A model generated the notes under the pieces. It saw nothing but the letters and a program-made list of their open reading frames with translations, searched no databases and was not told the origin of the DNA. This document shows positions 3,770 through 9,027 of a DNA stretch of 50,870 bases, piece by piece. The translations under genes and the position numbers were made by a program. Position 1 is the first letter of the stretch. Each line of letters begins with the position of its first letter. Source of the DNA: a virus. Its lineage: Duplodnaviria; Heunggongvirae; Uroviricota; Caudoviricetes. The DNA lies in IMG/VR virus record IMGVR_UViG_2645727821_000011; one strand, given 5' to 3'.

Positions 3770-5032
3770 TCAGCGAACGTAAATAGTGCCGCCGTTCTCT
3801 TTTTCCCATGCATCGCTACGTGCATAGCAAACATCGAGAAGTCTTCTTGCCGCAGTTTCCTCTAAACCCAATTCGACAACCAACTGCTCATGACGGCGGG
3901 TAACCACATCAAACAGGGTATGCAGCCCTTTAGTTGCCAGATCATCAATGAATTCCGGTTCGAACGGAAGCTCTGCATCTGCCAACATAACCTCTTGCGC
4001 CCACTCAACTCGACGGACCAATTCCGGGCGGCGGCTTTCCATCTCTTTACAGATCAATTCATGGAAGAACTCTACCCAACCTTCCGGCTGGAACTCGCGG
4101 AAAATTGCCAACGGCTGGAAGTTTGGCATCAACCATTCGTTGATTCGGATATCAATGGCATAGCCCATGTCGCAGCAGAACTGATAAGCAAAGTCCAGCT
4201 TAGACACGATATAAGGACGCTCGTTATTGAACTCTTTAGGCGATGAGATCCCATAAGCCAGGAGGCGCGGGAAGAAGGATATTTGCCCTAACGTCGGATG
4301 AAGTTTGCTTGCAGGGAAACGGCGCTCAGTAATGCCATACATTTCCTTCTTGAGCGTCGCAAATTTGGCATTCTCATTAACCAGCGCGGTAACCTCTGCT
4401 TTTTTATTAGCAAATGCCACGCGCGCTTCGCTTGCATCTTTAATAGTTTTTTTGAGCTGTTGGTTAAGGTCGGCGACCTGCTTACGCAGTTCCTGTCGCT
4501 CGCTTTTAGCTTTGTTATAGCGTTTCTCAAGGTTAAAAGGATCAAGTTTCATGATCTCTTTATATTGAGATTTTAGCGTTGAAATCTGTGAGTTCCGCAG
4601 TTCAACCATCGCGGTCATTTCATTGAGTTTTGTTTCCAGCTCAATGCTTATACGTTCGGCATTATCAGCACGCTGGTTGGCGTCATGCGTCGCATCGTCG
4701 ATCGCGTCCTGTTGCTGGCGTTTCAAATGTTCAATTTGCAGCTGAAGCTCTTCAATTTCTTTATCCTTCAGACCGAGATCCAACTGCATATTTTCAGCTG
4801 CATCTACCAGGGAGTTATGGCTATCAGCTTCTGCGTTATAAACATCAATAAGCTGTGCGTGAAGCATCTCCGCTGACTGAACCGCATTATCAAAAAAACG
4901 CGCTGTGAGGTCATCACAACTAACGCGGCGTTGCGCGGCCCGGATGTTCTGGATAATGGCCGGGATACCGGCATTCAGGACGTCAGGGATAGATACATTT
5001 TCGATTGATTGGTTTTGTGCTGAAGTGATCAT
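3770..5032 (-). CDS. hypothetical protein (420 aa) with long N-terminal coiled coil and globular C-terminal domain
   Basis: ORF; K/E/Q-rich heptad-like region. Confidence 0.6.
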   Translation of the reverse strand: MITSAQNQSIENVSIPDVLNAGIPAIIQNIRAAQRRVSCDDLTARFFDNAVQSAEMLHAQLIDVYNAEADSHNSLVDAAENMQLDLGLKDKEIEELQLQIEHLKRQQQDAIDDATHDANQRADNAERISIELETKLNEMTAMVELRNSQISTLKSQYKEIMKLDPFNLEKRYNKAKSERQELRKQVADLNQQLKKTIKDASEARVAFANKKAEVTALVNENAKFATLKKEMYGITERRFPASKLHPTLGQISFFPRLLAYGISSPKEFNNERPYIVSKLDFAYQFCCDMGYAIDIRINEWLMPNFQPLAIFREFQPEGWVEFFHELICKEMESRRPELVRRVEWAQEVMLADAELPFEPEFIDDLATKGLHTLFDVVTRRHEQLVVELGLEETAARRLLDVCYARSDAWEKENGGTIYVR

Positions 5033-5033
5033 T

Positions 5034-5252
5034 TCAAAGTTCCGTATTAGCTTGTGCTTCGGTCATTTTTCCTAAGTATGAAGGAGGAAGGACTACGCAA
5101 TTTGTATCCAGTCCCTCACCTATGGCAGCCTGTAAAATTCTGGCTAAGGTGAGTCTCTTGTTGCGATACCTGGTGATGACATGCCTGATACCGCCGGTCG
5201 GCGTAACAAAGGCGATCAGCCAGTAGTGATATTTCCGTCGGAATGGCCACAT
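5034..5252 (-). CDS. hypothetical small protein (72 aa)
   Basis: ATG with AAGGTG RBS. Confidence 0.45.
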   Translation of the reverse strand: MWPFRRKYHYWLIAFVTPTGGIRHVITRYRNKRLTLARILQAAIGEGLDTNCVVLPPSYLGKMTEAQANTEL

Positions 5253-5266
5253 AGTGCACCTTGTAT

Positions 5267-5283
5267 ATTGCTCTAATAAAAAA
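5267..5283 (+). promoter_or_regulatory. C1 operator-like site ATTGCTCTAATAAAAAA
   Basis: full ATTGCTCTAATAA core. Confidence 0.45.
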
Positions 5284-5307
5284 CGTGATGAGTGTACATC
5301 ACGTTTT
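5280..5307. terminator. bidirectional intrinsic terminator hairpin (AAAACGTGATG / CATCACGTTTT) flanked by A and T runs
   Basis: perfect 11-bp inverted repeat with 6-nt loop. Confidence 0.5.
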
Positions 5308-5315
5308 AAAAATAT

Positions 5316-5332
5316 GGAATTATTAGAGCAAT
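5316..5332 (-). promoter_or_regulatory. C1 operator-like site ATTGCTCTAATAATTCC overlapping a -35 TTGCTC / -10 TAAAAC promoter reading into 5252..5034
   Basis: consensus core; 17-bp spacer to -10. Confidence 0.45.
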
Positions 5333-5333
5333 A

Positions 5334-6035
5334 TTATTCTGATTCTCGCTCAAAAAATGAGCTGATAAGGGGAAGCCAATCCTCTGACACTTCGCGAGGT
5401 CGCGGTTTGCCGTGGAAAAAGATTATTCGGCAGTCTTTTGGTAATGCCCCATTCCCCCTGGAGTAACGCGCGCTCGCATATTTTGAACCAGGTTCCACAA
5501 CATCGGCCTTGTAACTTACAAACCATCCTGGATACAGATCCTGAAATGCTGGTGTATCATCGCCCATAACCTTTCGTAAGAACCCCTGGTCACCCCAACA
5601 CTCAGTAGTGACACAACGAGAAATCCAACCTTCCGGATCTTGCCAGAATGAACTCCAGATATGCGCTTTAACACTATTTGGTATCCACAGGGCACCGCTG
5701 CCACGATATTGTGGATGGTAAAAATCCCTAAGCATGGTGAAGCTGGTTGGTGGATGCTCTAGGATTGGGCGTATATCACCGGCAATAACCGTGTCCAAAT
5801 CCAGATAGAACAGATCATCGGTTATATCCGGTCGGAACAACTCGATTTTCGCCCACCAGCCACGGCACTTTTGCCACTGGTTGATCAATGGGACAACTTT
5901 GACGCCAGGTACATGTAAACGCTTCAGGTCTGTCAGGCAAATAATTTCATAGCCTTTTGGCAGTTGATTAACCAGCCACTGCACATCGGAAGCGTTATAG
6001 TCACCACCAGAGCGAAAAACTAAAGCAATCTTCAT
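5334..6035 (-). CDS. putative GT-A-type glycosyltransferase-like protein (DxD-like motif in FYLDLDTVI)
   Basis: ORF with ATGA overlap to upstream gene; motif-level similarity only. Confidence 0.45.
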
Positions 6036-6723
6036 GCTGCACCATCACCTTTCACTTTCATCAATGTCAGGTTTCCGCAAAATACGGCACCAGTGTCGAT
6101 ATACTGCTGATTCCAGAATGTCTTCGGGCTTTTCACCGGAGTGTGACCAAAGATAAAACGATCTGCGCCCGAAATTTCGCCACCAATATCATCCATCGAA
6201 TCACTGATACGCTCGCGCGCCCAGACAACGTTGAAAAGCGGCACCTCCTTACCGAATTGGTATTCATTATCCGGATAGTCGGCATGGGCTATAACGATAG
6301 TTTCTTGCCCGGTGTTCAACTCAATGATATAGGGCAGACGCTTTACCAGCTCCACCAGCGCCCAGGCTAATATTTCCTGATCAGTGTCCAGCATGAAGAA
6401 CATTGTCCGCCATTCATTAGCCAGTTATTCACGTTGCCATCTGGACTTAACGCATCAATCATCAGCCGCTCATGGTTCCCCATCACTGCCCTGAACCAGG
6501 GCATCTGCAATAGTTCCAGACATTCGACATTTTCAGTACCGCGATCGATAAGGTCGCCGACCGATATCAGTAAATCCTGCGCCGGGTCAAAATCCACACG
6601 ATGGAGTTCGGACATCAGTCTGGTGTAGCAACCATGCAGATCACCAACAACCCAGACATTCCTGTATTTGGTACCGTCGATACGGTGATAAATTGTGGGT
6701 GCCATCATGTATTCTTCAGCCAT
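6032..6723 (-). pseudogene. ppp: lambda-type Ser/Thr protein phosphatase (metallophosphatase, P1 ppp) interrupted by a 1-nt deletion near 6404
   Basis: GDLHG, GDLIDRG, GNHE motifs in frame 6367..6723; FIFGHTP half in frame 6032..6403; junction NGGQ / WFFML lacks one G of the expected TGG codon. Confidence 0.65.
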
Positions 6724-7331
6724 TCTTTAAGAGTCATCTGCGGAATACCTCCCATTTTCCCGCATGAAACAACGTCAATCCGTTCACGCGCAGACTGGAA
6801 TAACAAAGGCAGGTGACTTAGATTTTTTGGCGTGCCGCCGGAGTGAACGCGTGGTTCTTGTGTAGCGTCAACGCCCACCAGGGCGACATGTTTGAATCCG
6901 ATATGGAAAGCCAGGTTCAGAGCGCCATATGCACTATTGCCGCTGGCAATTTCATTCTCATCTTCGCAAAGTCCGAAATGTGCGGACCAGCGCCACGCCC
7001 ACCACTCGGGAGAATTCGTATTTTTTGGCTCCATGCCACGTTCAGCCACACGACGGAAGCACAGAACGCCGTCTCTGACTTCACGTTCTTTAACATCGGG
7101 TAGTGCCATGCAATAACAAACACCACGGCGACGGCGGCCACGACCAACGCGCCGCATATTGTCTGGCGATGGATCAAGTGTGAAAAAATAAGAAGCGCGG
7201 TTCAGCCAGTCGATGGCCCCATTGACCGCTATAATCGGCACTCCGCGCGGCGCAACAAAGTTTGCGGCGCTTGGGCCACTGCCGACGATAATAACGCGAT
7301 CACTGCCTCTAAATTTATTCTTGGGAAACAT
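6705..7331 (-). CDS. DUF115/Maf-like (MptE-like) putative transferase, paralog B (VGSGPS...IIAVNG)
   Basis: ORF; paralogous to adjacent gene; motif-level assignment. Confidence 0.5.
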
Positions 7332-7891
7332 TGAATTGCACTGCTCCTACTTGCATTCAAAATATGTAAATCTGCGTGTTTTTTGCGGGTATCCAGGAAC
7401 TGCTGTTGCCATTTTGAAATAGACACCTGCGTTGGATTCCGTAGGGCTTGAGGGTGCGCGCCATGCCAATGAAGGCCGTTTTGCAGAGAACAGTCATAGC
7501 CGACTAATACCACTACTTCAGCCCCTGATTCAGCAGCCAGACTGATAGCCTGCGCGCCGCTATTTACCCCTTCCGCCGGTCCACAATATCGCCTGTACTC
7601 CAACGAAAATGATTTCGCCGCCGCCAGGTTGGCTGTCACTTTGCGGAATCTCCCTCCCGGTATGGTGGATCCGTATTGCTTCCACCATGACAAATCACCG
7701 GCGTATAAGGCATAAATGTCATCGAACATCTGCCAGGAATTGTTAACCGCGATGATTGAACAGCCAGTTTTTTCTATAGCAGCACAGTCCTCACGAGTGA
7801 GTGACGGACCGCTACCGACACAAAAAACAGTCCTAGTCGCCCTGGGTGGTATGTTCATTCTCAGCTGCAAATTCAGCCTCCAGGCGAGCAT
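7229..7891 (-). CDS. DUF115/Maf-like putative transferase, paralog A (VGSGPS...IIAVNN); true start may be ATG at 7858
   Basis: ORF; 103-nt out-of-frame overlap with paralog B. Confidence 0.5.
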   Translation of the reverse strand: MLAWRLNLQLRMNIPPRATRTVFCVGSGPSLTREDCAAIEKTGCSIIAVNNSWQMFDDIYALYAGDLSWWKQYGSTIPGGRFRKVTANLAAAKSFSLEYRRYCGPAEGVNSGAQAISLAAESGAEVVVLVGYDCSLQNGLHWHGAHPQALRNPTQVSISKWQQQFLDTRKKHADLHILNASRSSAIQCFPRINLEAVIALLSSAVAQAPQTLLRRAECRL

Positions 7892-8054
7892 TCATTTCAG
7901 CGATTACAGGGTCCACTACAGCATCTGTTTCCTGTTCATTACGCGGCATGATCGATGCCAGCGATTCATAATTAGCCTTGGATGACACGACTATTCTCCC
8001 GATGTTAATGTGCGCTATATCAAATGGCGCATATGTACTAATTAATTTATTATT

Positions 8055-8633
8055 TTAAGCAGCATACAACCACTTGTCGCCGTTCAATACATGCTCAATA
8101 GCCTCACCCTTTTTAAGGCTTATGTATTCCAGGATGGCGGTTATCGCTTGTTCTGCACCATACGCAAGAACGACGTAGTAACCTTCCTCTCTAAGCCTGC
8201 GCATCCAGGCGATCTGCTCTTTCGTCGGGGCTTTACCATTTGGTTCTTTAAGCTCAATTCGCATGCCGTGATAAATACCGCATGCTTTATCGAGACTCAT
8301 GTCCGGATAACCTTTTTTCTGCCCTTCAGCCTTCATTTTCCCGGCGGTTGCTTTTGAACGTTTCCCTCCGTTAGGCGTTGCATGCAACAGCTCATAGATG
8401 TCAGGGTGCTTGCGTTCGAAGTAATCAAAAATGAAAACCTGCTCGAAGTGCTCGCAATTTCCGTCGCGCAGGTCTGGGTTCTTTGCAAGTGCTGCAAGTG
8501 CCTTCGCATGTGGAGAAACTTCTTTTACCGGCGCAAGCGATAAGAATGGATCCTTTTTGGTTTTTGGCCTGGGCCGCCCCTTATTTCGACGCTCACTAAA
8601 AGCCTGAAACTCTTCCTCAGTAAAGCGCAACAT
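8055..8633 (-). CDS. VRR-NUC domain nuclease-like protein
   Basis: C-terminal signature GYPD...IELKEPNGKAPTKEQIAW of PD-(D/E)xK VRR-NUC type. Confidence 0.6.
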   Translation of the reverse strand: MLRFTEEEFQAFSERRNKGRPRPKTKKDPFLSLAPVKEVSPHAKALAALAKNPDLRDGNCEHFEQVFIFDYFERKHPDIYELLHATPNGGKRSKATAGKMKAEGQKKGYPDMSLDKACGIYHGMRIELKEPNGKAPTKEQIAWMRRLREEGYYVVLAYGAEQAITAILEYISLKKGEAIEHVLNGDKWLYAA

Positions 8634-8635
8634 AA

Positions 8636-8881
8636 TCAGTCAAATCCTGCCGGTCGCATGCCATATTTACGCTGTTTTGCGGCCTGCTCTTCCCTGTGCC
8701 ATTGCGCACATTCAGCGTCACAATAAATGCCTGATTCAATCGATTCATTGCAGTAACGACACTTCCCTGTAAATACCTGGCTCACGACCTGTGCCTGCTT
8801 TCTGATGTTATCGATGGCCATGTCTTTGAGAGCTTCTAACTGATTCATGCTCAGCTCTGCATCATCAACACGTTCTGCCAA
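8636..8881 (-). CDS. small Cys4 zinc-ribbon protein (CRYC...CDAEC)
   Basis: TTG start with GAGGAAA RBS; first gene of the leftward operon. Confidence 0.5.
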   Translation of the reverse strand: MAERVDDAELSMNQLEALKDMAIDNIRKQAQVVSQVFTGKCRYCNESIESGIYCDAECAQWHREEQAAKQRKYGMRPAGFD

Positions 8882-8937
8882 TTTTGTTTCCTCGTGAAGA
8901 ACCTACTTAAGGGCAGAATGATACATTTCACAATCAA

Positions 8938-8954
8938 AATTGCACTAATAATTT
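8938..8954 (+). promoter_or_regulatory. C1 operator-like site ATTGCACTAATAATTTT in the divergent intergenic region
   Basis: 15/17 consensus match. Confidence 0.35.
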
Positions 8955-8976
8955 TCTTTTATTGAGTTAAATATTC

Positions 8977-8998
8977 AACAAATGACTAGCGGTAGAAT
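8977..8998 (+). promoter_or_regulatory. candidate late promoter AACAAATGACT-N5-TAGAAT
   Basis: same motif and spacing recur at 28832 and 40746 upstream of structural operons. Confidence 0.45.
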
Positions 8999-9027
8999 CA
9001 CCATCATCTATTTCTGGCAGGCTGACT

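Follow-up and report, generated by a model that had tools for sequence, protein, structure and literature searches.

Glycosyltransferases of the GT42, GT29, Maf and WaaZ types have a common fold, and the sugar-transferring enzymes of this fold use ulosonic acids activated with cytidine monophosphate (CMP). Single-domain proteins predicted to adopt the same fold are encoded by pmgO and pmgP, two overlapping genes in the 50,870-nucleotide (nt) DNA stretch analysed here as a whole (the window; IMG/VR record IMGVR_UViG_2645727821_000011). The window represents a P1-like phage or phage-plasmid ~99 % identical to P1, bases 5000–9000 sharing 98.8–99.0 % identity over their full length with P1, RCS47, P7, SJ46 and relatives. 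The genes pmgO, pmgP, pmgQ and dbn are long-annotated in P1 and dispensable in the laboratory, and public transferase labels already exist for pmgO, pmgQ and dbn. New are (i) the placement of pmgP in the fold of pmgO as its paralogue, (ii) the recognition of a conserved O-P-(Dbn)-Q(-methyltransferase) cassette in various phage types and phyla, including recurrent fusions, and (iii) the link to WaaZ and CMP-activated 3-deoxy-D-manno-oct-2-ulosonic acid (CMP-Kdo), together with the association of the cassette with adhesin islands.

Compared with Maf (PDB 5mu5), which comprises ~600 or more amino acids (aa) and carries additional N- and C-terminal domains, PmgO and PmgP are bare catalytic domains of 190–210 aa. 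Maf is encoded in flagellar and nonulosonic-acid loci, whereas PmgO and PmgP belong to a phage cassette with partners from glycosyltransferase families 8 (GT8) and 4 (GT4); no flagellin linkage of this cassette turned up in domain scans of selected surrounding genes, which were not exhaustive. WaaZ (RfaZ; TIGR04437, PF27901; CAZy family GT73), which adds KdoIII to the lipopolysaccharide core of E. coli K-12/R2 and Salmonella, uses CMP-Kdo and resembles PmgP as a single-domain protein of the same superfamily with the motifs SGP(S/T), VIAVNG, LTD/TLD plus a basic stretch, and xxAYxAxxxAYxLG...GxD. However, WaaZ is ~75 residues longer and encoded in the waa cluster (in K-12 between waaU and waaY), and the phage genes are never located in such a cluster. 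In case of the GT42 enzymes CstI/CstII of Campylobacter jejuni, PmgO and PmgP differ by the absence of a Pfam CST-I match and of a lid domain. The archaeal 6-hydroxymethyl-7,8-dihydropterin pyrophosphokinase MptE (PDB 8sd5) and thiamin pyrophosphokinases share the fold, but are set apart by diphosphoryl chemistry with adenosine triphosphate (ATP), a different genomic context and lack of a sequence match.

At the level of gene sets, the cassettes of mycobacteriophages (Freeman et al. 2023, as presented in PMC11600133) combine several glycosyltransferases with an O-methyltransferase, as does the pmg-type cassette; they comprise other enzyme families, belong to Gram-positive-type hosts and bring about a demonstrated glycosylation, whereas glycosylation is only proposed for P1. 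Aah/AIDA-I, TibC/TibA and GtfA/B with GT8 enzymes on serine-rich-repeat adhesins are cytoplasmic glycosyltransferases supplied with LPS or cell-wall precursors and encoded beside an adhesin gene, like the island copies of O, P and Q described below, and GT4 and GT8 enzymes also build protein O-glycans there. These systems use GT-B heptosyltransferases or GT4-type primers instead of MptE-like enzymes, and the likeness is one of gene neighbourhood.

The original prediction had placed two tandem paralogs with VGSGPS and IIAVN(G/N) motifs at this locus and assigned them to the MptE/Maf transferase fold. Two minus-strand open reading frames (ORFs) are indeed present there (Table 1) and both products carry both motifs, i.e., CVGSGPS (residues 24–30) and IIAVNN (46–51) in PmgO, and IVGSGPS (15–21) and IIAVNG (33–38) in PmgP. 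Pairwise BLASTP recognizes the similarity in the N-terminal motif region only (E 0.004). Comparison of the two families by hhalign (alignments of 23 PmgO-like and 22 PmgP-like proteins) yielded a probability of 97.3 % and an E value of 1.7e-11 over 162 columns with ~24 % identity. Judged from these alignments, PmgO and PmgP are shown to be real, anciently diverged paralogues. In both families, the GxGPS loop, (I/V)AVN, an acidic residue after strand 3 and NS(G/A)...GxD show no or hardly any variation, and the conserved domain of PmgO extends over residues ~20–203.

Searches of PDB sequences with the PmgO- and PmgP-family profiles gave no significant match and recovered no Maf chain; the fold was therefore taken from structure prediction. 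Both predicted models match the same top structures and share the fold of MptE (MjHPPK, 8sd5; Foldseek E 7e-4) and Maf (5mu5; E 9e-4), followed by SteA, thiamin pyrophosphokinases and GT29 sialyltransferases. The only Pfam family matched by either protein is PF01973 (MptE-like/DUF115/Maf_flag10), the match spanning the NSG...GxD segment; many homologues have a precomputed PF01973 match, and two double-domain members score 41.5 and 43.6 bits. The predicted MptE/Maf fold is supported by two independent methods, in agreement with the original assignment.

Residues 131–146 of PmgO form a distinctive segment (G-Y-D-C-S...H-W-H-G-x-H), in which C134, H141 and H143 are invariant within the PmgO family and H146 is nearly so. 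PmgP and WaaZ do not possess this segment, which lies in a loop at what we take to be the position of the catalytic histidine in CstII and could represent a general base or a metal site.

Conservation of the genes was analysed in 21 diverse loci drawn from a one-genome-per-species scan, from contigs encoding homologues and from named phages. Each of the 21 loci contains an O-like gene, a P-like gene or both, and 16 of the 21 also encode a PmgQ homologue. Source organisms are Enterobacterales, Zhongshania, Microbulbifer, Commensalibacter, Methylophilaceae, Brevundimonas, Rhizobiales, Sinomicrobium (Bacteroidota) and Longimicrobiales; O, P and Q also occur in Escherichia coli phage IME392 and in Xanthomonas jumbo phage XacN1. 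The GT-A-like and GT-B-like genes that had been predicted to accompany the pair correspond to pmgQ and dbn, respectively. While PmgQ as a single sequence matches no Pfam family at threshold, its family profile aligns with glycogenin-1 (E 1.2e-6, profile positions 69–209), including the motifs DxD, GDQG and the C-terminal metal-ligand motif FHG..KPW, which shows the enzyme to be GT8-like. Dbn, designated 'glycosyltransferase family 4 protein' in the P1 RefSeq record, scores 25.0 bits against Pfam Glycos_transf_1 (PF00534; cut-off 26.4) and its IME392 homologue 26.5 bits.

IME392, a 116-kb E. coli myophage, encodes O and P with a 37-nt overlap, then a GT4-like protein and then Q, the GT4-like protein being 50 % identical to P1 Dbn (E 2e-100). 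Dbn homologues are furthermore encoded no more than ~3 kb away from the cassette in islands of Buttiauxella (L104) and Serratia (L005). Since a Dbn homologue sits inside or near the cassette in these three cases, the four P1 transferase genes represent one cassette which is dispersed in P1. Recurrence of the trio across phyla and the position of the Dbn homologue between P and Q in IME392 also bear out the earlier suspicion that the transferases belong together. Among the loci examined, ppp is inserted only in P1-like elements and is absent from the cassette in e.g. L006, L003 and L113; it does not count among the conserved cassette genes. Methyltransferases dependent on S-adenosylmethionine join the cassette in several loci, namely class I types (Methyltransf_23/25) and, in Sinomicrobium, an FkbM type.

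The PmgO-family profile recruits 7,578, 3,766 and 480 clusters (50 % identity) at E≤1e-3, 1e-10 and 1e-30, respectively. Among these proteins, P0051 is a verified O-P fusion, P0302, P0323 and P0378 each show two MptE-like stretches, P0395 combines an O-like domain with a TylF-type methyltransferase, and P0308 combines one with immunoglobulin (Ig)-like Big_1/Big_13 domains. The recurrence of two-MptE-domain proteins in the family search argues that PmgO and PmgP act together.

Two gene arrangements may be mentioned separately. In XacN1 (L114 5324–11220, ORF375-372), O-like and P-like genes precede a gene for a 438-aa protein that joins a TylF-type O-methyltransferase to a GT8 domain, directly followed by one for a 1088-aa protein with an Ig-like PKD domain. 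On a podophage-like contig with SU10-type portal (L003 8001–10335), a single-chain PmgO-PmgP fusion (376 aa) is encoded directly after the lysis genes, followed by a PmgQ homologue and a weakly matching nucleotide-diphospho-sugar transferase.

The out-of-frame overlap of pmgO and pmgP, predicted at about 100 nt, amounts to 103 nt and is identical in the annotation of P1 itself. The pmgP ATG begins at the last base of pmgO codon 187, placing the genes in different frames; the overlap codes for PmgO residues 187–220 (last helix and non-conserved tail) and for PmgP residues 1–34 (leader, strand 1 and GSGPS loop). The N-terminus of PmgP (M-x-P, ~16 residues ahead of GSGPS) is conserved among homologues, and the next in-frame methionine is M59, i.e., a methionine start past the pmgO stop would entail loss of strand 1, the GSGPS loop and IAVNG. 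Because the P1 annotation agrees, the PmgP N-terminus is conserved and no earlier in-frame methionine than M59 follows, the overlap is genuine rather than an annotation artefact. The last ~17 residues of PmgO (after ~203) are unconserved, close relatives terminate earlier and the final 20 residues are of low confidence in the predicted model; the overlap is constrained in both frames over part of its length only. In other lineages O and P overlap by 133, 94, 49, 40, at most 43, 7 and 7 nt.

Scanning viral contigs with the PmgP alignment retrieved only near-identical P1-like loci, which were used for population analysis (79 loci, 52 distinct haplotypes). Both genes are intact in 52 of 52 haplotypes, and synonymous changes outnumber non-synonymous ones by 33 to 7 in pmgO and by 35 to 16 in pmgP. 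Thus, pmgO and pmgP are under purifying selection. Variable sites amount to 2.9 per 100 nt in the overlap versus 5.9 and 9.4 outside of it. That the pair is merely one gene broken by decay or a frameshift, or an overlap annotated wrongly, with no separate functions of the two ORFs, is extremely improbable: the natural single-chain O-P fusions and the unconserved PmgO tail would fit such an artefact, but O and P are separate genes in many lineages and phyla, both proteins fold confidently in prediction, the overlap holds no conserved slippery heptamer, and intactness under strong purifying selection is not expected of it.

A programmed -1 frameshift generating an O-P fusion was likewise rejected, since no slippery heptamer is conserved in the overlap. 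The heptamers T_TTC_CCA and A_AAT_TTA in the pmgO frame of P1 are a by-product of the conserved pmgP codons for M-F-P, and the overlaps of C. rodentium, Chimaeribacter and Brevundimonas have not kept them. A -1 slip in the overlap would remove the last helix of PmgO.

Structure alone leaves the activity of PmgO and PmgP undecided, since MptE is as close as Maf. They are probably glycosyltransferases rather than pyrophosphokinases, because the sequence signals lead to transferases, because of the kinship with WaaZ, and because they are constantly accompanied by GT8 and GT4 enzymes and sugar-type O-methyltransferases, in part within one polypeptide. The WaaZ model TIGR04437 matches the fusion P0051 with E 2.9e-4 (20.3 bits) and PmgP with E 0.11 (11.9 bits), compared with an equivalog cut-off of 200 bits, and does not match PmgO. 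Since comparison of the profiles with a single WaaZ sequence was uninformative, an alignment of the WaaZ family, whose members carry PF01973, was used instead. The PmgP family then aligned end to end with the WaaZ family (probability 82.8 %, E 9.3e-6, 189 columns), and the PmgO family more weakly (42 %, E 2.6e-4, 83 columns). On this sequence evidence, PmgO and PmgP are related to WaaZ without being members of its family. Faint sequence matches to CstII and PseD were also obtained. Alternatively, PmgO and PmgP could be pyrophosphokinases of the MptE/thiamin pyrophosphokinase type, transferring diphosphate from ATP to a hydroxymethyl group or sugar hydroxyl of a small molecule and perhaps activating a sugar for PmgQ and Dbn. 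Apart from the shared fold, this is improbable: no signal for MptE or thiamin pyrophosphokinases exists at sequence level, where matches go to WaaZ, CstII, PseD and 'sialyltransferase', domain scans of selected neighbouring genes revealed no gene for folate, pterin or thiamin, and the steady partners are glycosyltransferases and sugar O-methyltransferases. KdoT of Acinetobacter is an unrelated GT-B enzyme.

As sugar donor, CMP-Kdo is favoured at somewhat below even confidence, since PmgP is distantly related to WaaZ and all named source organisms belong to Gram-negative phyla (Proteobacteria, Bacteroidota, Gemmatimonadota). CMP-Kdo, a precursor of lipopolysaccharide (LPS), is the sole CMP-ulosonic acid common to LPS-producing bacteria. 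No gene for nonulosonic-acid synthesis turned up in domain scans of selected cassette-flanking genes, which were not exhaustive, and to our knowledge P1 encodes none either. PHROG 4603 confers the label 'alpha-2,3-sialyltransferase' on PmgO, which is probably wrong as to the sugar; as far as we know, E. coli K-12 does not form CMP-N-acetylneuraminic acid. Maf enzymes produced in E. coli BL21 move Kdo from endogenous CMP-Kdo onto serine/threonine (bioRxiv 10.1101/2020.06.03.131540).

Starting from the paralogy, fold, cassette conservation and purifying selection shown above, the following scheme may be proposed. PmgO and PmgP would be single-domain nucleotide-sugar transferases of the MptE/Maf/GT42/WaaZ type, forming with PmgQ and Dbn a portable cassette which is expressed in lytic growth and, as found in other genomes, recruits sugar O-methyltransferases. 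Each of the two would bind a CMP-ulosonic acid via the GSGPS loop, the asparagine of IAVN(N/G) and NS(G/A)...GxD, with the roles of these residues being putative. In P1 hosts the donor would be CMP-Kdo, the sole such donor available there, and PmgO and PmgP would add one acidic sugar each, either sequentially or as a pair, before PmgQ and Dbn lengthen the glycan with hexoses from uridine diphosphate-activated sugars. The acceptor would be serine/threonine of a protein, in P1 presumably a surface-exposed virion protein that is modified in the cytoplasm prior to assembly, paralleling Maf on flagellin and the glycosyltransferase/methyltransferase cassettes of mycobacteriophages. The complete chain, from a glycan-building cassette and CMP-Kdo through to a protein acceptor, is tentative and somewhat less probable than its negation. 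Still more doubtful is the general form, in which the cassette would serve protein O-glycosylation with a short Kdo-containing and sometimes methylated glycan, directed to virion proteins in phages and to inverse-autotransporter/Big_1 adhesins in islands.

Several observations bear on the acceptor, which is tentatively taken to be a protein (a virion protein in P1) in preference to LPS. Maf is the best structural match of both predicted models, which is counted in favour of a protein acceptor. Rhizobiales prophages carry the cassette between portal/fibre-like and head-tail connector genes; the genes annotated next to it in IME392 are of replication type (polymerase X, DNA ligase). For large phages such as XacN1 and IME392, lysogenic conversion appears improbable. 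In five Pseudescherichia-type genomes (L093–L097; e.g. L093 235–14419), pmgO is located 61 nt downstream of a gene for a 1178-aa inverse-autotransporter adhesin with IAT_beta and seven Big_1 domains; O, P and Q flank this gene, three further Big_1 or RCC1 proteins are encoded nearby and no phage structural genes are present in the locus, possibly constituting an adhesin-glycosylation island. In Serratia, too, O adjoins two Big_1 proteins, and P0308 unites an O-like domain with Big_1/Big_13 domains in one chain. Finally, the glycosyltransferase and O-methyltransferase cassettes of mycobacteriophages modify capsid and tail-tube proteins (PMC11600133), and purifying selection without a laboratory phenotype would agree with a modification that the phage can do without on laboratory plates.

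Other island loci have a different setting. In Buttiauxella (L104 6726–9604) and Serratia (L005 4014–6404), Q and P lie between genes for an LydA-type holin and a phage lysozyme, accompanied in Buttiauxella by a DUF2514 spanin-like gene, while the Serratia island also encodes a lipase, a lipoxygenase, two Big_1 proteins, two copies of O and the Dbn homologue. No phage structural genes were found near either locus, and they could represent a prophage remnant or a holin/endolysin-type secretion locus.

Remodelling of the LPS inner core is the most serious competitor of a protein acceptor, even though it is rather unlikely overall. Here, PmgO and PmgP would add Kdo to Kdo2-lipid A in the manner of WaaZ, and PmgQ and Dbn would build an alternative core; the new LPS would lack the terminal-glucose receptor of P1, reducing superinfection or the loss of progeny on cell debris. 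This would agree with PmgP belonging to the family most clearly related in sequence to WaaZ, the KdoIII transferase of K-12 and a member of the PF01973 superfamily, with the conserved basic stretch after the TLD motif in PmgP as in WaaZ, with the exclusively Gram-negative phyla of the named source organisms and with the frequent vicinity of lysis genes. A Kdo transferase-like enzyme combined with GT4 and GT8 also mirrors the families of enterobacterial core synthesis, GT8 being the family of WaaO/WaaR/WaaJ and GT4 that of WaaG, and WaaZ overproduction reportedly truncates the outer core. However, the P1 promoter just upstream carries a C1 operator, a lambdoid prophage (L006) has the cassette in its late block, with lysis genes on one side and terminase genes on the other, and L109 and L112 carry it inside the structural block; LPS is disfavoured because lytic-only expression could not replace the LPS already present in the outer membrane. 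Furthermore, the cassette occurs in XacN1 and IME392, neither of which looks temperate, its chromosomal copies have adhesin genes as neighbours instead of belonging to waa or O-antigen clusters, and the P1 proteins remain far below the WaaZ equivalog cut-off. Glycosylation of phage DNA, i.e., base hypermodification for antirestriction as established for DNA glycosylation in T4, could be considered in view of cassettes near packaging and head genes in several loci, but is highly improbable: no hydroxymethylase or base-modifying enzyme was found among the selected flanking genes scanned, the structural relatives act on proteins, glycolipids and small molecules, and methylation is the sole base modification of P1 DNA known to us. 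Moreover, antirestriction was unchanged in P1 pmg knock-outs (PMC9024508).

The preferred assignment to protein glycosylation is itself confronted with several adverse points. PF01973 scores of PmgP (21.0 bits) and PmgO (23.4 bits) fall below the gathering threshold (34.6), and the two P1 proteins are altogether below Pfam and NCBIfam cut-offs. By sequence, the closest protein of established function is WaaZ, whose acceptor is LPS rather than a protein. Cassette-bearing phages have unrelated virion proteins, i.e., a shared protein acceptor is not obvious; the Big_1 Ig-like domain was tried as common acceptor, and jackhmmer searches with the island Big_1 proteins detected none in either the window or the remaining phage loci. 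No report of a glycan on P1 virions is known to us, and word searches of the P1 proteome and recent cryo-electron microscopy papers found no mention of glycosylation, which means absence of the word and not of the glycan.

P1 is heavily used and well mapped, and yet harbours four conserved sugar transferases under purifying selection without laboratory phenotype. The same cassette is common to temperate, jumbo and other large phages as well as to adhesin islands across several Gram-negative phyla, which turns 'putative morphogenetic' labels into one testable question: which glycan, and on what. A virion protein as acceptor would extend virion glycosylation beyond mycobacteriophages, with bearing on immune recognition, stability and phage therapy. 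Were it built on Kdo as outlined above, no earlier case of virion glycosylation encoded by a phage of Gram-negative bacteria would be known to us, the case would be located in P1 itself, and Kdo would gain a role beyond LPS and capsules. LPS as acceptor would instead point to a WaaZ-related receptor-editing system of the lytic phase. Either would assign a function to a large family (the 3,766 clusters mentioned above).

Table 1 Positions of the cassette genes, neighbouring genes and control elements in the window
Feature	Position	Strand	Description
pmgO	7229–7891	-	220 aa; single-domain transferase, predicted MptE/Maf/GT42-like fold; PHROG 4603
pmgP	6705–7331	-	208 aa; distant pmgO paralogue, same predicted fold; PHROG 2111 'unknown function'
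pmgO/pmgP overlap	7229–7331	-	103 nt, out of frame
pmgQ	5334–6035	-	233 aa; GT8-like, GT-A fold, retaining-type; PHROG 1962 'glycosyltransferase' (E 2.5e-128)
dbn ('downstream of ban')	13826–14824	-	332 aa; GT4-like (GT-B) glycosyltransferase
ppp	6032–6723	-	lambda NinI-like serine/threonine phosphatase between pmgP and pmgQ; Pfam Metallophos and PHROG 246 on both halves
pmgN	7833–7988	-	51 aa; first ORF of operon; PHROG 2350, function label none
C1 operator Oppp (formerly Op83)	8032–8048	-	P1 annotation mapped to window; two substitutions compared with P1
PpmgN	8061–8087	-	predicted sigma-70 promoter; -10 at 8061–8066, -35 at 8082–8087; P1 annotation mapped
LPpmgL	8970–8988	-	late promoter upstream of pmgL; identical to P1; P1 annotation mapped

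The minus-strand gene order is pmgL, pmgM, pmgN, pmgO, pmgP, ppp and pmgQ. The predicted 'late operon' is correct insofar as the genes lie downstream of the late promoter LPpmgL, from which late read-through into the operon could occur. They are, however, also placed behind a C1-repressed sigma-70 promoter, since the P1 annotation positions Oppp and PpmgN just upstream of pmgN. Genes of the pmgO/pmgP region of P1 are dispensable, CRISPR interference (CRISPRi) and deletions having no plaque phenotype (PMC10695390). In the same study, pmgN scored essential upon CRISPRi knock-down (efficiency of plating 1.4e-2), yet its deletion was viable and all downstream genes were non-essential. The annotated pmgO start is overlapped by pmgN by 59 nt, and M12 at 7858 may be the real start of pmgO.

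Compared with P1, the window contains nine substitutions at 8009–8036, clustered between the pmgN start and the operator. Two of them (8032 and 8036) are located inside Oppp and presumably weaken its match to the operator consensus.

Relative to P1, a single base is missing near 6400 (plus strand, AACC shortened to AAC), which splits ppp into two ORFs in the window. Since ppp is intact (~231 aa) in 81 of 82 other P1-like loci, the split is a private frameshift or a sequencing error.

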